A DNA stretch of 64,000 nucleotides from Antedon mediterranea (Eukaryota; Animalia; Echinodermata): NCBI RefSeq assembly GCF_964355755.1, contig NC_092672.1:17125237-17189236 (forward strand). The letters are read 5' to 3'. Positions 3,591 to 41,813 of this stretch are shown in pieces. Position numbers and translations under genes: made by a program. Every line of letters starts with the position of its first letter. Within the stretch, counting starts at the first letter, position 1. The notes below the pieces were generated by a model. It was not told the origin of the DNA, did no database searches, and saw only the letters and a program-made list of their open reading frames with translations.

Positions 3591-4124
3591 TTATTGATAA
3601 ACTTTATTAGAAAGAAAGCAAGTCCACGCCAACCACAGAATAAACGTCATGGCAAGATCATCACGAACACCAGCCGTCTTTCCACTTATCGTGATTTTAC
3701 CGTCGGATTTTACGAGTCTTCTGAAGTTACACAGTTGATCCTGTAAAATGCTCATCTGTCCGTCATCGATGTCTTGTGCAAACACGACTCGATCGTTCTC
3801 CAGCAACATTTGTGACAAATGTACCAGATTTCCTTTGTCTCTTGTCCAAATTCCGACACACCTACGCCCGTCCGTTCGACGTCTCTCCTTTTCGAAAGAT
3901 ATGTCTACTGACGTACCGGCAAAACGATCCGTTACTTGCTTGGCCATGCGAGCGGCGTGTGCGTGCGATGTATTACGTTCTACGTACACACGAACTGGCA
4001 TGAATGTCAACTGATTGTACGTAGCCAAGGTCCTGTTCACCGTGTCTATTATTAGTTGGGCGTGCATGTCCAGTAAAGAATCCATACGATCCATATGTGC
4101 AACGTGGTGTTTCAAAGCAAGTAT
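3591..4124 (-). CDS. TRM3: DNA-packaging terminase ATPase/nuclease subunit, exon 3 (RNase H-like nuclease)
   Basis: Acceptor ttactacgcag|ATA; reads ILALKHH...VRVYVERNTS...ISGKTAGVRDDLAM, matching the herpes UL15C motifs (EH, VEGN, SGK..DDL). Confidence 0.88.
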   Translation of the reverse strand: MLALKHHVAHMDRMDSLLDMHAQLIIDTVNRTLATYNQLTFMPVRVYVERNTSHAHAARMAKQVTDRFAGTSVDISFEKERRRTDGRRCVGIWTRDKGNLVHLSQMLLENDRVVFAQDIDDGQMSILQDQLCNFRRLVKSDGKITISGKTAGVRDDLAMTFILWLAWTCFLSNKVYQ

Positions 4125-4315: not shown

Positions 4316-5209
4316 ATGTTGACGAATGCATTTCATCCCGTGTATTGCAATCTGGAATTTCTACAAGAACGACAAAGAATGTTTTTCGAATGGAAGAGCG
4401 CTATAGACAAGGCGGCTATAACGGACGAGATTAACGCATCCGCATTACCTATTGTCGAAAAGATTGTGAGAACGTGTGGTAGAGAGACAGTGTTGTTGGT
4501 GGAAATGAATGATGCAACCGTACAAGATATGGTCGAACAACGACAAAAACAATCGATTCTGGCTTACACAAGAACGGCAATGATGGCCGCCACGCAATTT
4601 GAATTGGGTCGACAACGAGAGATATCGCAATTGAACACGTTTCTCTTACAGGCAATAGAAATGTTCAATTTGACATTTTTACCAGATGTAGAACGTGAGT
4701 ACAGAGCATCAACGCCAACCGATAAACATTGGATAATAGATAGCATTCGCAATATCATCGTACAGCTGTTGACCAACACGTACGATCAACCAATGTGGCA
4801 TTCCGTCGGATGCGGATCACCGTTGGCCGTGGCCGTTGCAACGATTCGAAATCGAGTACAGAATACCAGTTGTTGTGGTGGTCTGTCTACGATTCGGGCC
4901 GGGCTCCCAGGGCACGCTACGTACGCGCTTCGAAGAATTATGGAGAGCAGAGGCGCCGCGTGCAAAATACCATCCGTTCGACTTACCTGCCTAACGTCCG
5001 ACGTCGTTAACACACCGGCAACCAATCCAATGCCGGACACGTCCGACGGAGTTGGATCGACGCCAATCAACAGACCCGATGAGAAGCCAGATCTTGTGGT
5101 GGATCTTCTTTCGTCTGAAAACAGTTTGGTTAGCAATTTACCGGAAAAAAGTCGCTCGGCGAGTGAAGACGGTGAACAGACGGGAATGCCCATACACTCT
5201 AGTTCATAG
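4316..5209 (+). CDS. Viral protein in terminase intron 2, overlapping exon 2 in antisense; positional analogue of alloherpesvirus ORF70
   Basis: 297 aa from ATG 4316 (the upstream extension in the ORF track is a microsatellite). Position between terminase exons 2 and 3 on the opposite strand. Confidence 0.6.
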   Translation: MLTNAFHPVYCNLEFLQERQRMFFEWKSAIDKAAITDEINASALPIVEKIVRTCGRETVLLVEMNDATVQDMVEQRQKQSILAYTRTAMMAATQFELGRQREISQLNTFLLQAIEMFNLTFLPDVEREYRASTPTDKHWIIDSIRNIIVQLLTNTYDQPMWHSVGCGSPLAVAVATIRNRVQNTSCCGGLSTIRAGLPGHATYALRRIMESRGAACKIPSVRLTCLTSDVVNTPATNPMPDTSDGVGSTPINRPDEKPDLVVDLLSSENSLVSNLPEKSRSASEDGEQTGMPIHSSS

Positions 5210-5553
5210 CTTCCGGTGGCTATGAGGTTCATCATCTGCTGAACGACATTACCGTCGTTTCCATCAATGTGTTCCGGTACCAAATGTCGCCTGTGAGCGC
5301 ACACTGTTCGCGTTCCTTTCTCGAAGCACGCATCGCACAGGTACGACTGAGTAATGTATTTAACCAGTGCACGTCCATCGTGTTTAATATTCACAAACTC
5401 TTGCGACCAGTGATCACTCGAAGTCATCGACGATGTTAAAAGAACCGACACGTTCTTAGGTTGAAAGATTGGCAGAGTTGATAGCATAGCCGTTTGCTTT
5501 ATCCACGGATACTCGTCCATCCATCCCATATCACAACCGGTTCCTCTTGAAGC
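4987..5553 (-). CDS. TRM3: Terminase exon 2 (Walker B, coupling motif, zinc site, first nuclease Asp)
   Basis: Acceptor tttgttttcag|GCT gives ASRGTGCDMGWMDE (Walker B); LLTSS; CDAC..CAH; LLIGVDP; donor CAG|gtaagt at 4986. Confidence 0.9.
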
Positions 5554-5571
5554 CTGAAAACAAAAATAAAG

Positions 5572-6468
5572 ATGACAACAGCTGCTCTGAACGCGTATCT
5601 ACAAGCAAATCGTTTCGACATATATCACGTGGACGAACTTCACGAATGTGTACCGAATAGATGTACGTTCGTGCAACCCATGCAAGACGGTGAGAATTTC
5701 GTGTGCATGTCGTCGCTACGCACGCACACCTGTTCATTGTCGGCAGACTGCGTCATGGAAAATTTAGATCACAACACTCGAAGATGCGCATTGACTGGTA
5801 AAGAATTCTATACAGACGAATATGAACCGATTGTCGTTGGACTCGATACGCCGCTATACGACAACATGCAAGAGGTTAGAAAGATGACAACGACGCGAAA
5901 TAAACACGAAAAAATGTTTCGTTTCGGCACAACCGTACGTCAGGTTCTGGAACGATTGTACGATCGAAAGAAACGATGCAAGTACAACAACGTAAATTTC
6001 TTTGAACACAAGGCCTGTGAAATGATTTTGGAGAACATGGGCAAACAGAACATCGTGTCCGTAATCAGATACACCTTTCTAAAATACGTATCAGCAAACA
6101 GATTACCGGATACAGCGCTTCCAGAGGAAAACATGCTGGACGACGTGGTAGACTTTATTTTCGACGTTATGTCTGTGTTTATGTACTACTCGACGTTACA
6201 ATATTCCAAGAAAGACTTTCTACTCAGCAACGGTCACGAAACGGTCGTGTACTTACTAAAGAGCACGTTGAATGGTATTCGTTCGGCGGAAAGCGTCATT
6301 CTAAAACCACGCTTTCCTCAACTGAAACCCATGCCAGGTGATCGGTTGATGTTTCCGATATTTCAGGTGTCGACCTCTCAACTGACAGCGTGCTCGAGGT
6401 TGTTACAGAGCATGGCGAATGAAAAGATTTGTCGTTATCATTTGGCAAAATTAAATCGAGAATCTTAG
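5572..6468 (+). CDS. UL92/ORF31/VLTF3-like late transcription factor candidate
   Basis: N-terminal HEC..C..FVC....THTC....DC........CALTG resembles the UL92-family C..C..HVC....C....VCALTG motif; helical C-terminus. Confidence 0.6.
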   Translation: MTTAALNAYLQANRFDIYHVDELHECVPNRCTFVQPMQDGENFVCMSSLRTHTCSLSADCVMENLDHNTRRCALTGKEFYTDEYEPIVVGLDTPLYDNMQEVRKMTTTRNKHEKMFRFGTTVRQVLERLYDRKKRCKYNNVNFFEHKACEMILENMGKQNIVSVIRYTFLKYVSANRLPDTALPEENMLDDVVDFIFDVMSVFMYYSTLQYSKKDFLLSNGHETVVYLLKSTLNGIRSAESVILKPRFPQLKPMPGDRLMFPIFQVSTSQLTACSRLLQSMANEKICRYHLAKLNRES

Positions 6469-6736
6469 TACGTTTTCGTTTGTGTTTTTTCTTCTTGATT
6501 ACGTTTTCTTTCTTCAACAACGATTTTGATGATGATGATGATTGTGTCGTTGTTGTTGTTGTTGTTGTTGGTGGTGGTGTTGATGATGATGAATTTACAG
6601 TTGATGTGGTCATGTACCAGAAATTACGTTGAATTAGTTCATCGGCCGATCGACGCCATGACATTTTCTCGTTCTTCTTCTTCTTCTTCTTCTTCACACG
6701 ACGTACGTATATGCGCAACATGTCATTAATGACATA

Positions 6737-9700
6737 ATGGTAAATTCGAAGACAATCATCATCATCATCATGTATACATCATCACAGACCGAAACGTTGA
6801 TGGACACGACGGCTGTTAGACAGAGGCCGACAAAGAGAAAAGGACGGGACGATAATAAAGAGGTTGGCAAACAGTCGAAAAAAATGACGCCGTATCTTGG
6901 ACGAGTTCTCGACGAACTCGCAGACCCGACGCTCACAACAACGACGCTCATGAGAATGGTATCGACTGCTTACAGATCCGGCTACCCTCCAGATGGATCC
7001 ATGCTGGGTCTAAAAGCGCAGCTACTTCGAATGGACGGCTTTTCAAAACAGTTTTCAAACGCGTTCGTTTCTGGTCGCATAGTTGTTGTCGACGCAAAGA
7101 ATCTTAAAAGCTTGTACGAAAGTCTGTGTGAAATAATCAAAATGATTGAAATCATCACAGAAATCAACAAACATGCTGACATGAAAGAGAGAACGCGTAA
7201 ATTGTGCGACAGTTTGTTTCTCGGCGGTAGCTTTCTAAATTCGAAACAAGTTCGGGTCTCAATCGTCATCAAAGACGGTAATCTAATACAACAAAAGATA
7301 CACTTTGCAAAACATCTCAAGACAATGACTGCCGTTCCAGGTATACATTCACAGTCGCCTGTAATAGGCGGTGGCGGCGCAGGAAAAGAGAAATCGTTTC
7401 TACAGCTGGGAAAGTTTCAGGCCGGCAATAGACTGACAATGAAAGATTTTTTTCTGAAACACTACACATCTACGCAAGGTAACAATTCCAGCGATCGTGA
7501 TGCTCTCTTCAACGAAACCGGATTAAGTAAAGATGATTTCGAGAGATTGTTGAAAGCGTGTACGCACATTCAAAACGTGGAAATCGGAACCACGTTTCGA
7601 TTGATGAAATACGTGTGCGCGCTGTTCGACAAAAGACCGAATCTGTACATGATTTTCGCTTGCCTCGTACTACATCGCATAGTTCATCACATCGGCGATG
7701 CTACACTGCTCGCCAGAGCCGACATGTGGAATCTCGTGTTGGGACAGAGTGAAGAGATCACAAACAGTTGGAACTTTGAAAGAATCGACGCGGAAATCAC
7801 GGCAGCTGAGAGTAAATGGAACGCGGCACATGCTCCGTGGTTGACCGTTGACTCGGCGGAACGTCCCACCGTCGAATGGATCAGAAAGTTGGCAAAAAAG
7901 ATACAAGAGGACTTTGCGCCATACGAAAGAAATGCTTTGGACATTGACTTTGACCATTTGTTTGGTGCGCTCGTGTCGTACATTAAAAAACACGAATTTC
8001 TCAAGATTCGTCTAAGAGATCATGCACTCGTTACTGGAACGATCGACGAACTTAAACCGTTTCAATGTGAACGACCTCCGTTCGGAACGCCCACTGCACA
8101 AGATGACATGCCATGGAGAGACTGTTGCCATTACGAGGCGAACGTATGTGCTATTCTACTCAACGCTCTTTGCAATATACCGGTTAGATCTCCTGAATCA
8201 ACGCGCAAGATTTCACTCGACACGGCCACCGAAGGCATGGCAATGGTCGAACAAAGTCGGTTCGAAATAACGCAACTCAGTTACCAACATCTGCTAAGTT
8301 TGGAGGCTAAAGCGCGTGAACGTGCCGCCAACATCACTACTACCGATTCTGAATCTCGTATGCCGGTGATGAACACAGAATCTGCTGATAATATGTCGGT
8401 GGTGCAGCAGCAGGTGAACACCGAAACTGTTGACGACGACGACGAGGCGCGTACTACAAACGCATCAGATACGCTTTCTGTTCTCGAACCTCTGGTCATC
8501 ATGGAAGGTATGCCGGCAAATACCACCCAAGACACACTACTTTCTGTGCTTGAATCTGGTACGACGCCGGCGGTGATGAACACCGAAACTGCTGACGCGC
8601 TTACTACTCACACCGATGATGCAATTTCTGTGCTCGAATCTATTGACATAGCAAGCATGCCGGCAAACACCACCCAAGACACACTTTCTGTGCTCGAATC
8701 GGGTACGACGCCGGCGGTGATGAACACCGAAACGCGTACACACACCGATGATACAATTTCTGTGCTCGAATCTATTGCCATAGCAAGCATGCCGGTGAAC
8801 ACCGCAATTGTACACGAAGAAGAAGAAGAAGAAGAAGAAGAAGAAGAAAAAGAAGGTGACGGTGATGATGATTTACCTAGCATCGGTCAACTGCTCGCTC
8901 CTTACGTGAACACGGCCAACAGCATCTTACCTTCAACAAACGACGATTTGCCCATCTTGGACGAAGACACCGTTCAAAGATTGCGTGAAATCTCGGACGA
9001 TGTGAACGCTCACAATAGTACAATGCACGTAAAACTCTACGATATTGAAGATTGGATATCATCTCAGCCCGATTCTAATGCCGAATCCCAATCGCAGATT
9101 GAAGTCATGCAATGGACAAAGGCAAAAGCCGAAGAAGAACGACGGACGGCTTTGAACACGCTCGAGACTCAACGAGTAGAACACGAAGAGTTCAAGAAGA
9201 CCATGGCCACCAGGAATGCAGAGTCGACGAGAGAAAATGAAAAAAAGACGCGAGTGAGCGACGCAAAAATTAAAGAGTTGGAAACGAAACTGGACAAGAC
9301 CGAAGGCGAACTGCGAAACAGTAAACGTTTGGTGGACGAAATGAAGCAACAACTTCACGACACCGAAATGCAAAATGTCGACGAGTCAGACACTCTAAAA
9401 GCCTTGCTTAACAAAAAGACGGACGAAGCACGTGCACATGAATTGATTTTGAAGCGCAAGCAATCCGAATTGATATCGTCAAAAGAACACGTTGACGAGC
9501 AGACGAGTCGTCGCATCGAAGCGCTCACAAACGAAGTTGGTGAATTGCGCGTGCTGAACAGAAGATTGGACACGGCCAACACGCTTTCGGAGACAACGTA
9601 CAGGCAGCGAATTCAACAGTTGGAAACTGATTTGCAAACGTACGAAGAAAAGAGCAGATTGTATCAGTCGAGCGTACAAAAAAATGAACAGTTGATGAGC

Positions 9701-11803
9701 CGACATGTTGACGATTTGGCGTCGCAACTTGATGCCGAAAAAATAAACTCTGCTTCGTTAAAACATGATGCAGAGAACATGTTAAAATCTCGAGAGCAGG
9801 CGTATTTGACCGATCTGAGAAAATTGAACAATGAGCTGCAAAACGAGAAGAAAAACGTACAGAAACTCGGTCGTGACTTGCAACAGACCACCGATTCGGC
9901 GCATCTGCAAAGAGAACAACTCAACAATAAACTGATGAACGCAAACACGACGTTCACCATCAAGCTGGACGAAATGAGAAGGGAGATTGAAGAACAGGAC
10001 AAGAGGCAAAACTCGGTTCAACACGAAAAGAATCTAGATACGGTTCAACACGAAAAGAATCTAGATGATTTGAAACAAACTCTTGTCGAGACCGAACAGA
10101 AGGTAGCGCAACTGAAACGAGATGGCGACGAAAAAATAGATGAATGGAAGAAACGTGTTGAAGAAGTGAAGATGGAGCGTGACAAAGCAGCTCAACATCG
10201 TGTCCTGTTGGAAAGACAGGTTCGAGAGTTGACGAGCAAAGCTGCAGAGGACAATTTCACTCGAAAACGTTTAGAAGAGCGACTGAAAAAGTCAATCGAG
10301 ACACACGCCGAGTACGTGTCGGAAGCTAAACAGAGCACGAAGAAAGAGACTGAAAAGAAGATGCTCGACATGTTGACACAGGCCGAGAAACAGCACACGC
10401 GGGAACGTGACGAGGAACGTGATCGACTCGAAAAACAACTGAAATCTGAAGTAACTAAACTAGGACAAAAACACGACGCAGAGATGAAACGTGTCGCGAA
10501 AGAACACAGCACTGCTATACAGCGACAGTTGACGTCGGCAGCGAACGCGTCGAGCAATCACAAAACAGAATTGAAGTCGACAATACGTGATCTAGAAGAA
10601 GCGCGAAAAGCTCGTGACTCGTTGTGTACGCAAAACGCTAAACTTCAAGAGAAGTTTACTGCCAAGGAAAAAAGTTTAGCTGAAACACATCGGTTATCCG
10701 ACGACAAGAATAAAGAAATATCCTCTCTTGCCGCTCAGGTAATTATTTTAAAAAATCACAGCTTGACTGCACAAAAGCGCATCGAAAGTCTCGAAAAGGA
10801 ATTGGAACATTCGCAGCGAAAAGTATCCGAATCCTATCTGAAACTGTCTGAATTCATAAAGAATCAAAGCGACGGAGGCGGTGGAGGAGGAGGAGATGGT
10901 GGATCTGATGTGTTACATGAAAGAATGAAAGATATCGAAGCGTCATTGGAGCAAGAAAAGCGCCAAAATCTATATAAAGATGGACAGATTGCACATTTGA
11001 AGTCTGATGTTAAATTTTTAACTAGTAAAGTTGAAACTGCAAACAGCGAACGAGAACGACAGGTTGCAAACTTACAACGGAAACTTTTCAATAAAAAACG
11101 TACGTCGCATTCGTTATATACGTTACATCATGATGAAGATGAAGAGGATAAAGTGGAGGAGGAAGAGATATACGATGAAGCTGAGTACAATCATGACTAT
11201 TACGGTGATGAACATGATGATGATAATGAGCATAATGGTGGCAATGAGGATGATGATGAATACAAAATACAATTTGTTGTCGATTACAGTCCAAGTAATA
11301 CGTCCTATCATCAGTTATTCGGAACCGGAGAGTTTACTTTCAACGAAGTGATTAATCAAGCAAGACATTACATCAATTCCACCGATGATGAAGATGTATC
11401 AACAGTAGAAGCAGCAGCAAAATTGACCGACAGATGTGGCTCGACATATTTTGCGCCTATGGTCGTACGCAAAGGCAATGTAACCGAAGGCGATAGAACT
11501 GTAATGAAAGTGATTTCGTTCATGGGAAAAATACCGGGCGTGACATTGGTAAAACCGAGTCAAAGTAGCGTTCCTATTTGTTTTCTTGCGTCAGACAATT
11601 CGTGCAAGTATCGCCGTAGAGGTGATGCACGATACGTAATTTTTGGCAAGGATATGCGTATAGATTGGTCGGAGAAAGATTGGTATGTACAATTGGTCGG
11701 ACGTATTCTCGAAAACAATCTTAGACACAATCCAAAGGTAATCACTGCAGCACCATGTTTGACCCAACAGACGATCCAGTTACCAGCTCCGATAACTTTC
11801 TAA
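6737..11803 (+). CDS. Large coiled-coil protein (tegument-like), 1688 aa
   Basis: Long intact ORF; E/K/Q/L-rich heptad region at about aa 790-1450; internal repeats; acidic tracts; inside terminase intron 1. Confidence 0.75.
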   Translation: MVNSKTIIIIIMYTSSQTETLMDTTAVRQRPTKRKGRDDNKEVGKQSKKMTPYLGRVLDELADPTLTTTTLMRMVSTAYRSGYPPDGSMLGLKAQLLRMDGFSKQFSNAFVSGRIVVVDAKNLKSLYESLCEIIKMIEIITEINKHADMKERTRKLCDSLFLGGSFLNSKQVRVSIVIKDGNLIQQKIHFAKHLKTMTAVPGIHSQSPVIGGGGAGKEKSFLQLGKFQAGNRLTMKDFFLKHYTSTQGNNSSDRDALFNETGLSKDDFERLLKACTHIQNVEIGTTFRLMKYVCALFDKRPNLYMIFACLVLHRIVHHIGDATLLARADMWNLVLGQSEEITNSWNFERIDAEITAAESKWNAAHAPWLTVDSAERPTVEWIRKLAKKIQEDFAPYERNALDIDFDHLFGALVSYIKKHEFLKIRLRDHALVTGTIDELKPFQCERPPFGTPTAQDDMPWRDCCHYEANVCAILLNALCNIPVRSPESTRKISLDTATEGMAMVEQSRFEITQLSYQHLLSLEAKARERAANITTTDSESRMPVMNTESADNMSVVQQQVNTETVDDDDEARTTNASDTLSVLEPLVIMEGMPANTTQDTLLSVLESGTTPAVMNTETADALTTHTDDAISVLESIDIASMPANTTQDTLSVLESGTTPAVMNTETRTHTDDTISVLESIAIASMPVNTAIVHEEEEEEEEEEEKEGDGDDDLPSIGQLLAPYVNTANSILPSTNDDLPILDEDTVQRLREISDDVNAHNSTMHVKLYDIEDWISSQPDSNAESQSQIEVMQWTKAKAEEERRTALNTLETQRVEHEEFKKTMATRNAESTRENEKKTRVSDAKIKELETKLDKTEGELRNSKRLVDEMKQQLHDTEMQNVDESDTLKALLNKKTDEARAHELILKRKQSELISSKEHVDEQTSRRIEALTNEVGELRVLNRRLDTANTLSETTYRQRIQQLETDLQTYEEKSRLYQSSVQKNEQLMSRHVDDLASQLDAEKINSASLKHDAENMLKSREQAYLTDLRKLNNELQNEKKNVQKLGRDLQQTTDSAHLQREQLNNKLMNANTTFTIKLDEMRREIEEQDKRQNSVQHEKNLDTVQHEKNLDDLKQTLVETEQKVAQLKRDGDEKIDEWKKRVEEVKMERDKAAQHRVLLERQVRELTSKAAEDNFTRKRLEERLKKSIETHAEYVSEAKQSTKKETEKKMLDMLTQAEKQHTRERDEERDRLEKQLKSEVTKLGQKHDAEMKRVAKEHSTAIQRQLTSAANASSNHKTELKSTIRDLEEARKARDSLCTQNAKLQEKFTAKEKSLAETHRLSDDKNKEISSLAAQVIILKNHSLTAQKRIESLEKELEHSQRKVSESYLKLSEFIKNQSDGGGGGGGDGGSDVLHERMKDIEASLEQEKRQNLYKDGQIAHLKSDVKFLTSKVETANSERERQVANLQRKLFNKKRTSHSLYTLHHDEDEEDKVEEEEIYDEAEYNHDYYGDEHDDDNEHNGGNEDDDEYKIQFVVDYSPSNTSYHQLFGTGEFTFNEVINQARHYINSTDDEDVSTVEAAAKLTDRCGSTYFAPMVVRKGNVTEGDRTVMKVISFMGKIPGVTLVKPSQSSVPICFLASDNSCKYRRRGDARYVIFGKDMRIDWSEKDWYVQLVGRILENNLRHNPKVITAAPCLTQQTIQLPAPITF
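8368..8810 (+). repeat. In-frame internal repeats in the 1688-aa protein
   Basis: MPANTTQDTL(L)SVLESGTTPAVMNTET occurs twice, and SVLE(S/P) five times. Confidence 0.85.
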
Positions 11804-11913
11804 TCCTAATCAATCTTCTCTTGACCAATCTAATAGCGAATACTCGTCGACATGAGCAGAAGAAGGAGAAGAAGGAAGAGGAGAGACAACTGATTACCTC
11901 CATATTTTAGATT

Positions 11914-12506
11914 ATGTCGTTTGATTTATGGAAAAGTTTAGAGTCACGCGTTGAACGTAGATGGATAGAATGGTCTCATCATCATCATCATCATCATCAC
12001 GACGACGACGACGAAGAAGAAGAAGAAGACAACGCTTACTTGAAAGAATTGTTGAAGGAATTCAAAGGAAATTTGGAGAGTATATGTACCAAAAAAGGCG
12101 ATGAACAAGATGTTCTCTATTACGCACGATGCATTGCGCTCATCGAACGTCTCTTGTTCGACACAACCACGATAACGTCCGAGTGTTGTACAATGGCCGA
12201 CATGGACAGTATATTGAAACGCAATGTTCTCTTTGCCTGGACCAATGTGCACTCTTTCAAAATTCTCGAAAGATTATCAACAATTTGGAGATTTGTGACT
12301 GTAATGGGAACCGTACCGGCAATGCCGATCGGATGCTGTCCCATTGTCGGCTACAAATGTTTTTGGTGTAGAATTAAAGATGAAAACCTTACAGATGAGT
12401 GTCATCATCTTGTCACTACCGTATTCAGCGAAACAACAGAACAAACAGCAAAAAAAGAAGAGACATCACTCGTTGTATTTCCACTTCCAGCATCATCATC
12501 ACCGCC

Positions 12507-12559
<53 letters not shown>

Positions 12560-13401
12560 TATCAACATCAAATTATTACGATGAGTTTGGTTTTGCCAAA
12601 CGCATCGATAAACGAGTCAAGAATGCCGTTGAAAAACTTAGAATTGAAATCGAGAAAGAAATTCGATATGTAGAATCGTGCGTTAGCTATACGTTGTTGC
12701 CAAAAACAATTAGTCTCGAGTGTACGGCATCGATTGCAAAACTGTTGTGTTTTGCCGAACGCCGTCGGTGCATGGCGTCCAAGCAGTACGCGTGTTTCGA
12801 GCATTGTAATCTTGATGTTTGGAGTAGAAACCTGCTCGAGTGTATGTTGGCGAATCCGGACAGACACGATGAACGCAGAGCGGCAACGTGTACATTTTTT
12901 CGTCTCGTTGTCGATCCAAGTACGGTGGTCGATCCGGCAATCATTGGACACGAAACGGCGTTCAGGAAATGGATGGAGGCGTGTGACGTGGACGTGGAAA
13001 GAGTCTGTGACTACGTGAATGGATTGAAAAAAATGACACCGACAACAGAAATAAATAAAAATGATCAAGTTACAAGCATGTACAAATGTTTATTAATTTG
13101 GCACATGTTCTCGTCCATGCCCGTATCGGGAGGTGGTCCGTTAACGATCCATCGATGCGATCTTGACGGAATGCCAAGCGCAGACGGACTTTGTTTTCTT
13201 TACGATGACAGACGTTTTCTTGTTAAACGCGCTGATCGTGTACTCAATTTCACCTATGAACGTGCTGTAGAGTCATGCGTGGCCTGGATACGGTACGGTA
13301 CGCTATCGATGAATTCACCCACTGTGAGGCGTGTACTGTTCCATACTGGCTTCGATGACGATCGACATGATATCCCCAAACATGATGGCCAGACGCGATG
13401 A
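11914..13401 (+). CDS. Hypothetical Cys-rich viral protein, 495 aa
   Basis: Long intact ORF with the same codon style as its neighbours; in-frame poly-H/D/E/P/S tracts. Confidence 0.65.
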
Positions 13402-13716
13402 CATTTGCGACACGATAATGTTCTGCACTCTGTAATCGATTCCCATCATTACCGTCATGCGAAGTAAAGTCTCTGTCATGAACATGAGTCTACCCCGGCC
13501 ACCGCCGTAGTAACTCGAATAGTATCTGATGAGAGGATATTTCAGTCCACTGTAGAACGTTATGGCAAACAGAATTATATTGGACGTCAACAGTTGCTTG
13601 TAGCTTATCTTCTCCTTATCGTACGTATTCCCTTGCCAGTTGTATTTCGACGTAAGACTGTACAGAACAACGACGAATATCGTAAAAGTCACTATTAACG
13701 GCGCAAATGGTTTCAT
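13315..13716 (-). CDS. Small membrane protein
   Basis: 133 aa from an ATG; two or three hydrophobic segments; divergent from the Snf7-like gene. Confidence 0.45.
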   Translation of the reverse strand: MKPFAPLIVTFTIFVVVLYSLTSKYNWQGNTYDKEKISYKQLLTSNIILFAITFYSGLKYPLIRYYSSYYGGGRGRLMFMTETLLRMTVMMGIDYRVQNIIVSQMSSRLAIMFGDIMSIVIEASMEQYTPHSG

Positions 13717-13753
13717 TGTGCGCTATACTGCCTTATTGCATCAGCACGCAAAC

Positions 13754-14326
13754 ATGTTTGGTAAAAGAAAAAGAAGAGGCGAAGCCATTGAACAAAAACG
13801 AGTAGAATCTATGCGCAACATTGCCGCCATGCAACACACATTCGACGAAAAGACGATGCAAATGCAAGAAAGTATACAGTCAGGTTTGAAGAATGGAATT
13901 GATGCGAAAATGCTGTCGTCGTTGATCAGACGAAAGTCGAATTATGAACGAATGTTGACCACGTCTCAGAACGCCATGTTAAAGTTGGAGAAAGATGCAC
14001 TTTCGTCTAAATTACGAACGTTTGACAGGCTGCAATACGATCGACTCAAGGAGGAAGATTACTCTCTCAGAAAATCAGAGAAGAGCATGAATCCCAATAG
14101 GATATGTTCACTTTTAGGAAGCGTTAACAACAGACGACTTAGACACAATACTGCAATGGATTCAATTCGAGGATTGTTGGACGATGATGATGATGATGAT
14201 AGCAGCGATGAGGACGAATTGAATGATGATGACAATACATTGGCACGTGAGCTCGTCGACCGAGAGATTTGTAATAAACTTGTCAACTTGCCCGAACCAC
14301 CTAATCGCTCAAAAGTACCTTCTTGA
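13754..14326 (+). CDS. Snf7/CHMP4-like ESCRT-III protein
   Basis: 190 aa; basic N-half and acidic C-half; MFGKRK start, LIRRKSNYERML...LKLE, SMNPNRICSLL, DEDEL..LAREL and a C-terminal LPEPP, colinear with the Snf7 family pattern. Confidence 0.65.
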   Translation: MFGKRKRRGEAIEQKRVESMRNIAAMQHTFDEKTMQMQESIQSGLKNGIDAKMLSSLIRRKSNYERMLTTSQNAMLKLEKDALSSKLRTFDRLQYDRLKEEDYSLRKSEKSMNPNRICSLLGSVNNRRLRHNTAMDSIRGLLDDDDDDDSSDEDELNDDDNTLARELVDREICNKLVNLPEPPNRSKVPS

Positions 14327-14347
14327 TAATAATAAAAAAAAAAATAT

Positions 14348-15451
14348 CTAAAGAACAAATTTGTCTTCTTCTTCTTCTTCTTCTTCTTCTTCTTGTATAC
14401 GTTTACACGTTACGCACATTGTTCGAGAAGTTATCTCACTGCAAGTAGGGCACGAACGCATCATTGCCAAATCGGGCTGTTTAACTGTCAATCGTACACC
14501 GGCACCGTCCAACGACAGAGAAGCCAATCTTCTCGAATGACAGTTGTAACAGGTGGGTAAGAGAGAATTCTCGTCGATATACATCCCTTTTGTCGGTGGC
14601 CTGTTCTTCAGATCTACGTAAGTTAAAATTATATAACAGTAGCGACAAAAAACAATCGATTCTGATCCAAATGCCGCTGGATTGTGATCGTAAAAGAATT
14701 CTATCTGAGAGCATCGTTTCTGAACAAACATTATGCTCTTCATCTCGGATAGTTCATCTTTGCTTAATAACGACAGCGCTTGAGTTATGAGCGAAACAGA
14801 GTATTTCTCATTGCGCGTTTTGTTTAAAAGTAGAACGCATTCTACCAGTGCATTTGATCGATTCGGTATGGCAAACATTAGATTGAACGGCCAACTGGAC
14901 TTTGTAAACTCCAAAATTGTTTTCATCATCGGATGCAACGGTTTTCTTTTCACATGATTCAATTGGAACAGAATGCATTTGAGAATGGCCGAATCGTGTA
15001 TTCTGTCGGTTAAGGGCACCACAAATGATGACCGTTTTCGCGTCTGGTGGTGGTGGTGGTGGTGGTGGTGGTTGTTGCGTCGGCGACGACGATCAGCTTG
15101 CATCCATTGCATTAACTCATCAAAATTTGTTATGTAGGCAGCAATGTGTCTGTGATACGGCCGAGCGAGTGTATCGAGAAAATAGTAGACGAACGCCGTT
15201 TTGGGCGTCATGCTATCATCATCATCATCACCACCACCACCACCGATAGATACGGCCGCATCGAAATGACGTCGCTGTTGCTCGTTGCATCGTTCCAGTT
15301 TATTTTTGTACGATGTTTTCGATGCTGTGCCAATGCAGGCGCCTATCAAATTGACAAGTTTCACGTGATGGCTGGTGGTGATGATGGACGTGTTTTTGAA
15401 AATGTACGTTAAACCGGCAAGGAACGTTGGATAGGCCTCGGAGCGACTCAT
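14348..15451 (-). CDS. Zinc-binding protein, UL49/ORF66/VLTF2-like candidate
   Basis: 367 aa; four C-terminal CxxC pairs (CRYC, CYNCHS..L..L.L, CPTC, CVTC); sits in terminase intron 1 on the same strand. Family call is tentative. Confidence 0.5.
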   Translation of the reverse strand: MSRSEAYPTFLAGLTYIFKNTSIITTSHHVKLVNLIGACIGTASKTSYKNKLERCNEQQRRHFDAAVSIGGGGGDDDDDSMTPKTAFVYYFLDTLARPYHRHIAAYITNFDELMQWMQADRRRRRNNHHHHHHHHQTRKRSSFVVPLTDRIHDSAILKCILFQLNHVKRKPLHPMMKTILEFTKSSWPFNLMFAIPNRSNALVECVLLLNKTRNEKYSVSLITQALSLLSKDELSEMKSIMFVQKRCSQIEFFYDHNPAAFGSESIVFCRYCYIILTYVDLKNRPPTKGMYIDENSLLPTCYNCHSRRLASLSLDGAGVRLTVKQPDLAMMRSCPTCSEITSRTMCVTCKRIQEEEEEEEEEDKFVL

Positions 15452-15483
15452 GATGCAAAAAAAATAAAAACAACAATACTCAC

Positions 15484-16179
15484 GTTTGCCGTGTTTGCTT
15501 TGCTTCTAAAGTTTGCCGTCGTGCCCGTAGACTGCAACACTTGTACTCCATCCGGAACACCTTTGAACGTGAACGCGTATCGTCGTTGAGCCATCTCCAA
15601 TAGACGAATGACGTCTTCTCGATTGGTACGCGCGCAGTTCAAATCCTGAGCCCAGTTAACGACGGATATACTATTTTCGTGTACAAGAAGAGATGCCACC
15701 ACAAGTTGACCGGCGCGATTCTTGCCGCTACGTCGAGGCACTCTGACAACCGTAAACTTTCTATTGAATTCGTCTATCTTTCTAGCGGCAGAATGTCGTA
15801 CGGCCGGATGCCATCGAGCCGGTTCGGTCATCGACTGTGCCTCCTCGTCGGACAGTACGCCGAGTATGCAAAGTGATGGAATTCTCAGCTTCGACGCTCG
15901 ATCTCCAAACACTTTGTTGAATCGTCCAGCTATGACAGCGTTACACATTTCCTTCTGAAACGGCTCTAATCGTATGTTACTTTGGCGACACAGAAACTCT
16001 AGAGTTGACTTGACGTTGCTTACGAACGTTAGACATTTTTTGTCCATGTCCGCCGTTGCTGCATTATTGTCGGCAACGCATTCACTCAACGGTTTCAGGA
16101 CGCATAATCCAAACGAATGGCGCTTTCGTTCTTCTATTCTATTGCATATGGTACGCATTTGTCGCTGGTGGGAAATCAT
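15484..16179 (-). CDS. TRM3: Terminase exon 1 (adenine-binding Q motif, Walker A)
   Basis: RLEPFQKE and VVRVPRRSGKN (herpes PRRHGKT); ends ANTAN|gtgagt, a phase-0 donor at 15483. Spliced product is 598 aa from ATG 16179. Confidence 0.9.
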
Positions 16180-16280: not shown

Positions 16281-17586
16281 ATGATGATGATGTTGTTGTT
16301 TATGTTTCTATTTTTTTTAAATTGCGATGGCAAGGTGATACGTCACGGAAAGCCATACGGTCAACTTGCGAACGGTAACAGAACGCTGATATGTTCAAGC
16401 GAGAGTATGTTTAACATAGAACGAAACGGAGAGTTTGCGTGTCCAAACTCGGAGGGAGAATACGAGGTGCTGGACATGATAACAACCGACAGACAAAGTA
16501 ACGTTACCGTTTTATTTGACGATGAGTCGACGTTCAACGTGGACCTTAACACTAGACTGGAATTTGATTTGTCTGCAAACAAAAGCAAGGTCGACTATCG
16601 ACAGCAGATGTCTGCGTCGTTTTACATTAAATTGAACGAATCGAGAGATGGGCAAATTCTGTACAGCAACAGTGACAAAGATTACATGTTTATACGAATT
16701 TTGGACAGTCGACTGGCTGCCACATTTGATCTTGGCTCGAAACCGTTGACGGTGGTGAGTCGAGAGAACGTTTTAGTTGGAAAATGGTATCATTTCACCG
16801 TTAAACGAGTTGGATCGTGGGCCAGAATCGTAACAAACGGTCTGTTCGGACCTTGGTCGAGTGTACACGGAAACTACACTCGCCTCGACACAAACAATCT
16901 GTACGGCATAGGTGCGTCCGACACGTTCCCATCGGTGAGCGCGTGTCTCGCTTTGTTCCAGTTCAACGGTAAACGCCTCTTACCGCAGAATCTGAAGACG
17001 TGCAAAGTAACTGAGCATCAGCAGCAGCAACGAGAACGTGGCGCTACTGCAACGCAATCTGTTAGCAGGGCAAATTTACTAAAGGGTGAACGTGCATTTC
17101 ACTTATCTTACGCCGTTTCTACTACTTTTCAATGGCCTAGTGACGTCGACTATCAGGACAGAGTGTTCTTATCGTTTTACATAAAACTAAACAAAGACGC
17201 CGATGGACAGATTCTGTACAGCAGTGGCAACGAGGATTATATGTTTTTGGGTATCGTCGACGGTCGATTGAACGCTACATTTAACATGGGTTCTGGATCG
17301 CTGACAGTTGTCAGCGATCATGTGCTCGTTGTCGAAAATTGGTATCATTTCGACGTTTCCAGAATCGGTAATCAGGCTAGAATTGATTCGGATTTCAACG
17401 TCGGTGGCTGGACAAAGCTGAACGATACGATGGGCGGTACCAGCCTCGATTTGAACGGTACATTTCATTTGGGCAGTACCAATAGAACACAGTCGATAAC
17501 CGGTTGCATAGCATCCTTTCAGTTTAATGGATGGTTACTGCAACCCAACACGGTTACAGACTGCACATTCAACAAAAATGATGATG

Positions 17587-17617
<31 letters not shown>

Positions 17618-19481
17618 AAACGCACGGGCAACGACAGCAGATCATACGGTTTCATTGATCGGCGATTGGAAGATGAAGTTGACGAACGATTCTTGTTATG
17701 CATTCGATATCGATCCGTACGACCTGTACACGTTCAATGAAACGGTGAACGTAAAATTCTTGTTGAAACTCACGAAAAAAGAAGACGGACAAATCATGTA
17801 TTCCAACGTGGTGAACAACGCCGAAGCGTTCGGACCGTCCGTCTTGATAGAAGACGGCCATTTAGTCGTAGAGTTGCGTAGCCGCGGCTCTTCGGCAACA
17901 GCAAAGTCGAAAACGGCTCGACTTAGCAGCATCGAAAAACTTGCGATACGAGAATGGTACCAGGTGTTGATAAAACGGAAAGGAAATCAAGTGTACTTGT
18001 CGTTGAATACGGCCTTTGACGAATGGGCACAAGTGACGAAAAGGTTTACGCCCAACGATGTGGTGACAACGCTTAAGGTGGGCGCAAGTGATACTTTAAA
18101 GTCGATTGTAGGTACAGTGACAATGTTGAAAGTAAACAATCTTCAATTACAACCGAGTATAGCCGAAACGTGTACACACGATGATGATGTCGTCGACGAG
18201 GATACGTTCATGACGACACCGTCTGCACCGCCACTCGAGTCTGCATTCAGAATTGACTTGAAAAAGAAATCTTGTCGTTCCTTCACCGTTCCCACTTTGA
18301 ATCGTATAGAAAACACAATGGTCATCGAATTCTACATTAAACTGGATACGGTGGACGAAAAACGACAAATACTACTGTATGAATACAGTGCCGACGTACG
18401 AATGTCAATTGTTGTCGTACCGGGAGGACGATTGAAGTTCAGTTTTGTGTCTTTGTCGCGTATGACTGTCATCAAAAACATCGGACGAATGACGCAGGGT
18501 ACTTGGTATCAATACACTCTCGAATTGGTCATGGGGTTTGTACGCTTGTCTTCAAACTCGAAGGTGGTTAGTCGATGGCAACGGCTACCGTCTGAATTTA
18601 AGTCCCCTTACCGACAGGATGGTGTGTTTATAATTGGCGCAAACAATCGTTTACCGTCGATCGATGGAACTATCGCCGATTTCACCATCAACGGATGGAC
18701 GATGGATTCTTTGAATCTTCGCACTGATTGCAACGACGGCCCGGCCGTCGTTGACAAAATTGAGCCAGAGAATATGATTTTACGCGACGTAGACACCAGG
18801 ATAGACTATCAATTATGGTACGAACCGTCGTCATTGAAAAGTTTCTTTTTGAATCAAACAGACTGCGTCAAGCTTACAACACCGCCGTTGATGATCGATA
18901 AAGCGTCAGTCTCTTTTTACTTTATATCGCTAAGAAATTCCGGCAACATTTTAAGCTATCAGAGTGATACGACAAATTTTAACGCGCGACTCGTTGACAA
19001 TTATCTACACGTTATATTCAAATCACCTTCCGGCCTTCGTGTTCAGATTATAAGCACGCAACAGTACATCACGAATACATGGGCGTATGTTGAAGTTTAC
19101 AGAAATAGACTGTACGTTCGATGTAAGTTCTCCGGTTACATACAAGAAGAAAAGTTACCCACCGACGAGTTCAACACCGTTTCAACTACAAAGAATGCGA
19201 CTACAGTGATTGTCGGAAAGGTAGACGAAGAAAGTAATTCTATAACCGGTGTCATAGCCGCTCTGTACATAAACAAGGCATTATACAAAGTGCAGGATGC
19301 TTATTCGTGCATCATCGACATACCTACCACCACCACCACCACTACAGCAGCAGCAGCAACGAATACCTCTATACACTCGTCTGACCAACTGCGTGGTGCG
19401 TCATCCACCTCCTCCTCCGGTTATAACATTTCATCGAAAATATTATGTTTATCTCTGTTGTTGTTGTTCATATTTCAATAA
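16281..19481 (+). CDS. Secreted, probably GPI-anchored protein with about five laminin-G domains
   Basis: Signal peptide; repeated SFYIKL..DGQILYS..DYMF..I.DGRL.ATF..GS...WYHF...R.G..A...G.S....GC motifs; Thr/Ser stalk and a hydrophobic C-terminal tail with no cytoplasmic domain; intronless. Confidence 0.85.
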
Positions 19482-19582: not shown

Positions 19583-20268
19583 CTACCAACATCGTGATCC
19601 GCCATAGGCAATAATGGCGATAGTTATATACATATCGTTCAACAAATCTCCAATTGAGCCTATCAAATTTACGTTATTTTCTGATATGAAATCTAGATGT
19701 TCCAACTCGATAAAGAGCTCAAACGAATTGTTTATCCGTTTTATGTGTTTTCTTGGCATGTAGCTTTTCAGAAGATTCTTCAATTCATTCACTTGCTCTT
19801 TATCAATATTTGAAGCAATATCAACAAGCATACGTCTAGATGAAAATAGATAAAATAATAATAATAAGATTCTGCTGACCATATTAAAAAAACAAACAAA
19901 AAACAAAAGAAAAAAAAAACCAAATATCAATATTAAACTTACCTATACCGTGAGATGATAGGCATCGCTTTTTTCTGCAAGTATCGTTCTACTCTACACG
20001 CCATTTCAATCTCGCCTATATTACCCAGCAGTTCTTCGAGTAAGTTTAAGTTCATTTTTGATACTTTCTTCATGCCTTCAAGACGAGAAACTAATTCAAT
20101 GAATGAAGAGATTTCATCAAATTCTTCATAGCGAAGACCGATCGTTTTATCGAGACATAAGTATTTGAGTTTACAGACATCAGTTTTTGTCAGTGCACTG
20201 TCTAGTTCGACAATCAATTTGCTATAGGTTGCGTCAGTAAATGTCTTGCTATCGTTACCTGCACCCAT
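19583..20268 (-). CDS. vFLIP: vFLIP-like tandem death-effector-domain protein, two exons (20268-19943, 19835-19583), 192 aa
   Basis: DED1 YSKLIVELDSALTKTDVCKLKYLCLD...LLEELL; donor AG|gtaagt and acceptor catctag|A join ISRYR-RMLVDIAS in frame; DED2 ELKNLL..FELFIELEHLDFISENNV; no caspase domain. Confidence 0.85.
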
Positions 20269-27318: not shown

Positions 27319-27988
27319 TTACACGATGGCAGTTTCTGCCAACACATCATCGTAAGAAGGCGGAGCCGTCGATGTAAGTTCGATAGACTGTGGTTCACTT
27401 AAATCATTAGAAATATTTTTACATAGACGGACGGCTGACAGTACAGACGATGTATTGTACACGACTATCAAAATGAGCAGTGTACAGAAAATTACGTAAC
27501 CTTCTGTGGAAAGTTCAGTGAACGTGTTTCGGTGCCTATGTAAAACCAGAGAAAAAAAGCAGAGTATTGGAAACATCAAATTAAAGAGTAAAGTAAGTAC
27601 TGTATGTATGCAGACGGTCACTTGATATTGTGTCTTTCTCGGCCTCTCACGTTTCCAATACACTTCCATCAAGTGTAGCAGTCGAAGCGTAGCCTTGTTA
27701 CCTTGAGATGTTAAAAATAGTATACTCATCGAATAATCCTTTTTCATACCGACTGATATGAATAATGAAAAAATGGCCGTAAAATAAAAGTGTAATTGAC
27801 CTATTCTTCGTCTAGAGCCGAACATAAAAGTCTCCACAAACATAAAGGAAAACATTCCTGTTGCAATAGCAAATGTAACGTATACTTCTTGTTCACTACT
27901 CGTCAATTGATCGTACATCACACCCGATTTCATGCTCAATGCAACAGCGGTCAATGGCAACGTTAAGCTTACGCACATCTGAATGCAC
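27319..27988 (-). CDS. Multi-pass membrane protein (TLC-domain-like) with a C-terminal PPxY motif; possibly the last exon of a spliced gene
   Basis: About five TM helices; STAPPSYDDV; strong acceptor ctattttag| just upstream of the ATG. No upstream exon found. Confidence 0.55.
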
Positions 27989-41429: not shown

Positions 41430-41813
41430 TCACTTCAATAACTGCTTAAGAAATGTGGTTAACGTTTCAGAATATTCCTCCTTGTTTTTACTGGAACTAG
41501 CAAATTCACGTGCAACGTGAAGTGTGACAATAATGCGGCCCTCATTCACGTGGCCGTCTTCAAACATGCCCACGAGCAGATTGTGTAATGACTTGGCGCT
41601 GCGACATTTCACCTTATCAACTTGATTCTTGATTTCAGTTTTCAATTCTGCGTTGCTAAATGTTTCCGGATATTCACGTTCAACTTTTTCCTCGTTTTCC
41701 AAATAATTTTTGGCCAAAACGATCAATTTATCAACATCAAAACCACCGTTTCTCTTTAACATCTTGTTCAACAATATTTCTTTTTTTGAAGTGACTTTCT
41801 CGTTTATACGCAC
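41430..41813 (-). CDS. Viral Bcl-2-like protein (BH1 present, no clear BH2 or TM)
   Basis: MFEDGHVNEGRIIVTLHVA matches BH1 (LF.DG.NWGRIV) with a W-to-E change; upstream EKVEREYPETF is BH3-like. First ATG is at 41762. Confidence 0.65.
   Translation of the reverse strand: MRINEKVTSKKEILLNKMLKRNGGFDVDKLIVLAKNYLENEEKVEREYPETFSNAELKTEIKNQVDKVKCRSAKSLHNLLVGMFEDGHVNEGRIIVTLHVAREFASSSKNKEEYSETLTTFLKQLLK

Follow-up and report, generated by a model that had tools for sequence, protein, structure and literature searches.

The window analysed here is a 64,000-nucleotide stretch of DNA from Antedon mediterranea (contig NC_092672.1, positions 17,125,237 to 17,189,236), which contains herpesvirus-like genes. 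Among them lies one intact open reading frame (ORF) of 190 amino acids on the plus strand (13754-14326), probably encoding a distant Snf7-type protein of ESCRT-III; Snf7 is a protein that cells assemble into polymers for cutting membranes. The ORF and its parts are:

13754..14326, plus strand: 190-residue ORF, likely a Snf7-type ESCRT-III protein (ORF reading, structure model, Atlas, Foldseek and profile)
13760..13894, plus strand: predicted helix 1, residues 3-47, basic at the N-terminus (confidence 82-87 across residues 11-50; aligned with helix 1 of the Snf7 profile)
13904..14083, plus strand: predicted helix 2/3, residues 51-110, unbroken, giving an open ESCRT-III-like hairpin past the Gly48 turn
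14093..14179, plus strand: predicted helix 4, residues 114-142, basic, which in Snf7 it is not
14180..14230, plus strand: acidic linker, residues 143-159, partly a triplet repeat and not diagnostic
14231..14284, plus strand: predicted helix 5, residues 160-177, of low confidence (about 60)
14279..14302, plus strand: MIM2-like motif LVNLPEPP, residues 176-183, a candidate binding site for the MIT domain of VPS4 (pattern match, profile alignment)
14331..14336, plus strand: polyadenylation-like AATAAA in the sequence 3' of the ORF

The gene is real and its herpesvirus context is confirmed by the following features:

5554..15483, minus strand: first intron of a herpesvirus terminase ATPase gene, about 9.9 kb, enclosing the ORF (in-frame GT..AG sites; exon frames match orthoherpesvirus profiles)
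15448..16179, minus strand: terminase exon 1 frame (PF02500, E 0.012; our own orthoherpesvirus terminase profiles)
4786..5553, minus strand: terminase exon 2 frame (own profile, E 2.7e-7; splice join)
5572..6468, plus strand: UL92-like gene adjoining exon 2 (PF03048, E 4.8e-4; own profiles)

Terminase profiles were built in this analysis from orthoherpesvirus terminase exons, and three minus-strand exon frames matched them (E 1.5e-3, 2.7e-7 and 1.1e-5 among 124 window frames); Pfam also recognized terminase (PF02500, E 0.012; PF02499, E 0.0016). The GT donor at 15483 and the AG acceptor at 5554 fuse exons 1 and 2 in frame just ahead of a Walker B-like motif; orthoherpesvirus terminase genes are spliced at this point too. 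Because this in-frame donor and acceptor flank the ORF and the exon frames match terminase, we place the single ORF within the terminase intron, as the original prediction had done. A spliced terminase ATPase gene with genes inside its intron, the criterion for Herpesvirales, is therefore present. The intron also encloses the UL92-like gene next to exon 2, which is the beta- and gammaherpesvirus arrangement, and this suggests a deep herpesvirus lineage with part of the beta/gamma late-transcription gene set. The terminase gene is in three parts (5554-15483 and 3591-4094), and the virus has almost no database relatives.

The AlphaFold2 model, computed from the single sequence without an alignment (mean predicted local distance difference test score 75), has predicted helices at residues 3-47, 51-110, 114-142 and 160-177, consistent with an open ESCRT-III layout and register. 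Length and predicted helix layout match Snf7, and the helical hairpin anticipated in the original prediction is predicted by the model. In a Foldseek search of the PDB, the ESCRT-III superfamily (CdvB, Asgard ESCRT-III, CHMP, PspA and Vipp1) accounted for 16 of the first 22 matches, none of them significant; the best match was 9ftl (TM score 0.52/0.59, probability 0.99). As a weak control, a 190-residue coiled-coil piece of a 1688-residue neighbour was modelled as a single unbroken helix and had 0 Foldseek matches. No helix is predicted past the LVNLPEPP motif, and the protein ends 7 residues beyond it; in CHMP4, a terminal helix after the motif is the usual handle for ALIX.

A profile was made from 35 archaeal Snf7-family proteins (loci L168-L197), four of which were checked by Pfam, all scoring above its cut-off. 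Local hmmsearch aligned residues 2-119 colinearly with profile positions 11-127. Since the claim concerns end-to-end colinearity, a glocal (end-to-end) scorer was written for this analysis. The ORF scored -1.8, which corresponds to z 6.0 over residue shuffles and z 5.2 over 7-residue block shuffles; none of 200 shuffles of each kind was as high, nor did any reach this score in a larger run (0/2000). Eleven coiled-coil controls scored -14.8 to -41.7 (z at most 3.3), and three divergent archaeal ESCRT-III-like positives outside the profile scored 1.8-14.5 (z 6.4-9.0). Among 1728 sequence windows from 633 proteins, all 48 that outscored the ORF were from Snf7, PspA or archaeal ESCRT-III-like proteins; the top of the 1354 background windows, a set that excludes 373 windows from family loci, was -3.8 and came from loci pre-selected for weak Snf7 matches. 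The signal persisted without the tail (residues 1-145 alone, z 5.3, 0 of 500 shuffles) and with six random 12-sequence sub-profiles (z 3.2-4.7 in 6/6), and it arose from the 25 non-CdvB sequences (z 4.3-6.1), not from the 10 CdvB-like ones. The alignment is colinear from residue 1 to about residue 182, in agreement with the colinearity originally proposed, and the turn at Gly48, the point where helix 4 begins and LPEP fall on matching profile positions.

LVNLPEPP is the sole match in the 50 window ORFs to a MIM2-like pattern that was picked post hoc, after the sequence had been seen, and 0.012% of 200,000 shuffles placed such a motif in the last 30 residues. On the profile alignment, LPEP coincides with the conserved LP motif of the profile, which puts LPEPP at the MIM2 position. 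The motif agrees with the viral MIM2 (vMIM2) consensus (PMC11218997) at 4 of 5 set positions, the last hydrophobic position being Lys, and shares the LPxPP core of CdvB (PMC5840170). The charge polarity described in the original prediction held only in part: net charge is +13 for residues 1-142 and -13 for residues 143-190, but the acidic part is due wholly to one D/E run (143-159). Among language-model neighbours in the Atlas, Snf7 clusters were found at 0.90 (175 shared features, 11 of 30 matches), and with the PF03357 clusters excluded, the best named neighbour was still an archaeal SNF7-named cluster (0.88); these two results are one source.

Several results weigh against an ESCRT-III identity. 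Pfam Snf7 (PF03357), which the original prediction had named as a check, gave no row for the ORF up to E 10; this lowers but does not exclude membership, because genuine divergent family members are also under the cut-off (21.7 and 26.3 bits). None of 177 candidates from a homologue search among proteins reached E 0.01, leaving no significant sequence match, and the top match in VIA was to MICAL bMERB domains (residues 2-150, identity 5-9%). With composition correction, the local hmmsearch score was noise (472 of 1000 shuffles equally high); without correction it exceeded 1000 of 1000 shuffles, yet 14 of 19 coiled-coil windows scored higher. The glocal margin over the best coiled-coil negative is only 2 bits. 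D/E runs occur in 8 of the 50 window ORFs, a common feature of this virus, and the basic helix 4 (+4) contrasts with the Snf7 profile, which is acidic at that place. A phmmer search of the PDB gave noise only, and no homologues were found in viral contigs, metagenome contigs or phages. Among rival families, bMERB, UL51 (PF04540) and PspA/Vipp1 (PF04012) did not match the ORF in Pfam either. Even so, the matches go beyond the generic coiled coils that the original prediction had named as contrary evidence: Foldseek, Atlas and profile point to ESCRT-III. On these convergent, individually sub-threshold lines, we consider ESCRT-III ancestry of the ORF quite likely, and the proposed Snf7 interpretation is supported to that extent.

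One archaeal profile, of 6 sequences, gave a match of 6.7 bits that looked promising but was rejected as not colinear (glocal z 1.2). Pairwise scores against 8 archaeal proteins were noise, and CdvB motif scans returned chance loci only. An ESCRT-III-like family of 185-200 residues that is likewise under the Pfam Snf7 cut-off (L149, L154 and L162-L167) occurs in 6 of the 401 genomes from the G283 phylum and matches Snf7 by hhalign profile comparison at 90%.

The stretch is present, whole or in part, in 12 sequencing runs from 5 studies. Among the differences listed for a close copy in organism B (4 runs compared), 7 alter codons of the ORF: 5 are replacements, 2 are silent and none gives a stop; 17 further differences are beyond those listed. 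The same runs (X1, X5, X12) also contain at least two herpes-like copies of 13333-14749 that keep synteny but are more diverged. In a contig from X5, the ORF region differs in spacing by 38 nt, a length that three does not divide evenly, so this copy may be disrupted.

Viral gene blocks lie at 1-20.3, 23.9-28 and 36-41.8 kb, separated by AT-rich spacers. The DNA around the ORF is gene-dense, with about 44% GC and an observed/expected CpG ratio of 1.4, against 32% and 0.54 in the spacer at 28-36 kb; this base composition suggests viral blocks embedded in animal DNA. Other features are:

6737-11803, plus strand: 1688-residue protein, about 700 residues of it coiled coil, with no family match
11914-13401, plus strand: 495-residue Cys-rich protein, in the intron
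14348-15451, minus strand: 367-residue protein with four C-terminal CxxC pairs, in the intron
16281-19481, plus strand: multi-laminin-G protein, secreted or anchored
19583-20268, minus strand: two adjacent death-effector-domain ORFs, vFLIP-like
27319-27978, minus strand: 219-residue multi-pass membrane protein with PPSY at residues 206-209, near the C-terminus
41430-41762, minus strand: Bcl-2-like ORF
43128-63928: long tandem-repeat arrays, with units of 149/292 bp and 175 bp

The death-effector-domain, Bcl-2-like and laminin-G genes are likely captured host genes. The 367- and 495-residue proteins did not match UL16/UL94 and UL95 profiles, and none of the profiles for UL16, UL17, UL93, ORF32, UL95, kinase, nuclease, capsid and triplex had a convincing counterpart in the 124 window frames; no capsid or polymerase gene was detected in the 64-kb window. 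The UL92-like protein had one ENA protein match (48%), and no loci were found for it; the 367-residue neighbour matched 0 loci, and terminase exon 2 matched none. PPSY is the sole PPxY in the 50 window ORFs, as reported for a protein at 27.3 kb in the original prediction, but its gene is 13 kb from the ORF, nothing links the two, and the budding module suggested there gains no support apart from this motif.

How might such a protein act? The most likely explanation, at about even odds, is a Snf7-type subunit that would assemble into polymers on membranes at the necks of budding or enveloping virus and recruit host VPS4. Starting from an observed ORF, intron location, motif and colinear profile fit, and from a predicted helix layout, we infer every functional step from knowledge of the family: basic helices 1-4 would bind acidic lipids, subunits would stack as filaments, either by themselves or together with host CHMPs, and the VPS4 MIT domain would receive LPEPP in its MIM2 groove. 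The role would be that proposed for pUL51/pUL71 in cytoplasmic envelopment. Recruitment by another viral protein would be needed, because the protein has no Cys before residue 118 (118 and 173 being its only ones), which leaves it without a palmitoylation site like that of UL51, and because no helix is predicted beyond the motif.

The same Snf7 ancestry could instead underlie a decoy. It would cap host CHMP filaments, assemble together with them or sequester VPS4, thereby redirecting endosomal sorting or the repair of membranes instead of performing scission for the virus. Extreme divergence from Snf7, the basic helix 4 and the lack of a terminal recruitment helix would fit such a role, as would the host-modulating death-effector-domain and Bcl-2-like genes on the same element and the finding that HCMV (human cytomegalovirus) vMIM2 recruits VPS4A though it is dispensable for envelopment (PMC11218997). 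However, the protein retains full length, every helix and the VPS4 motif, and its gene sits in the terminase-intron block beside the UL92-like gene; moreover, the available part of one report describes Snf7 as a core function in mirusviruses (PMC12768974). We consider a decoy unlikely.

It is similarly unlikely, in our view, that the protein is not ESCRT-III at all. It would then be a bMERB-like protein with a generic hairpin or three helices, perhaps an adaptor that binds Rab or belongs to the tegument, and would resemble Snf7 through its coiled-coil patterning, its acidic repeat and a proline motif present by chance. The bMERB match in VIA, the lack of a significant sequence match, the thin margin over hard coiled-coil negatives and the frequency of acidic runs all favour this explanation. 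On the other hand, its bMERB identity is low and no bMERB Pfam match was obtained, the colinear register extends over about 180 residues and includes the turn, the start of helix 4 and the LP motif, the signal survives tail removal, and the Atlas gives Snf7 twice, from one source. Orthology, with very strong divergence, to UL14/UL96/ORF35 or UL51/UL71, the hairpin tegument proteins of orthoherpesviruses, seems very unlikely. Against these profiles the ORF had a glocal z of 1.6 (UL14), 2.3 (ORF35), 1.5 (UL96) and at most 1.3 (UL51; 14 sequences, alpha-type) versus about 5 for Snf7, and hhalign gave at most 0.3% for UL14/UL96/ORF35; with a 5-sequence PspA profile, z was at most 0.1. The family identity of the sequences behind these profiles was verified. 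Conversely, sampled UL14-family and UL51 proteins reached z of at most 2.6 on the Snf7 profile, with one UL51 at 3.7, and 13 of 14 UL51 proteins had z of at most 1.5 versus 4.7 for the ORF over the same range. Furthermore, the ORF occupies the intron and not the region past exon 1, and its product has no N-terminal cysteine.

Returning to a Snf7-type protein, virus-encoded ESCRT-III is already an established theme. The original prediction knew of no herpesvirus with an ESCRT-III subunit of its own, a premise that fails: HSV-1 pUL51 is similar to CHMP4B and assembles into filaments (PMC7289601), and HCMV pUL71 binds VPS4A via vMIM2 (PMC11218997). What is new is a probable Snf7-type copy, full-length and with a MIM2-like motif, in a deep herpesvirus lineage and apparently independent of UL51. 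No description of a full-length Snf7-type herpesvirus gene was found in the literature searched, whose coverage left out most subscription papers; PMC10132985 does not mention Snf7 or ESCRT, and PMC11188069 is silent on viral ESCRT-III. Of the herpesvirus proteins already described, pUL51 resembles the CHMP4B hairpin only, and the pUL71 MIM2 has no known role. If our identification is true, a herpesvirus protein colinear with the whole of Snf7, motif included, would allow a direct test of whether herpesviruses supply a membrane-scission polymer of their own. It would have a bearing, too, on the origin of UL51, because Snf7 is core in mirusviruses and a structure survey of the alloherpesvirus SalHV-1 reports, in its accessible part, no orthoherpes tegument homologues (PMC13030845); that part makes no mention of ESCRT, Snf7 or CHMP. 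We consider it rather improbable, though, that the gene is an inherited Snf7 core gene of a mirusvirus-like ancestor, and that true Snf7 was later eroded into or replaced by the UL51 and UL14 hairpins.

The ORF resembles B-type ESCRT-III (class definition in PMC11804906), comprising eukaryotic Snf7/CHMP4, CHMP6 and Asgard ESCRT-IIIB (PF03357), in length and in the predicted layout of helices 1-5 with fused helices 2/3; its basic core, its acidic tail from one D/E run and its MIM2-like motif after helix 5 would fit as well. It differs from B-type ESCRT-III in being below Pfam detection, in its basic helix 4, in having no helix past the motif and in being a viral gene. With pUL51, pUL71 and BSRF1 of Epstein-Barr virus (PF04540) it would share an ESCRT-III-like hairpin encoded by a herpesvirus, but it has no profile similarity to the UL51 family, occupies another gene position and lacks the N-terminal palmitoylated cysteine that is a UL51 feature (PMC7289601). 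The UL14/UL96/ORF35 tegument proteins are similar in having a long helical hairpin, a weak Foldseek likeness and a gene close to terminase, whereas their profiles do not fit and the accessible portions of the sources describe no MIM2 for them. According to the parts available, some Borg elements encode ESCRT-III-like proteins (10.1101/2024.11.05.622173), and Snf7 is present in most mirusvirus genomes (PMC12768974), where two supplement rows give intronless 612-nt genes with Pfam E values of 4.5e-17 and 2.7e-13. Mirusviruses likewise have a herpes-related morphogenesis module, but their Snf7, compared here by description and not by sequence, is Pfam-detectable and belongs to protist viruses. 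Finally, ORF 058L of Bivalve iridovirus 1 from cockle is, in the accessible text, a CHMP4 homologous to that of the host and a proposed budding aid (PMC12452177); it too is an animal DNA virus's own CHMP4, whereas the present ORF has diverged much further and belongs to a block of herpesvirus core genes.
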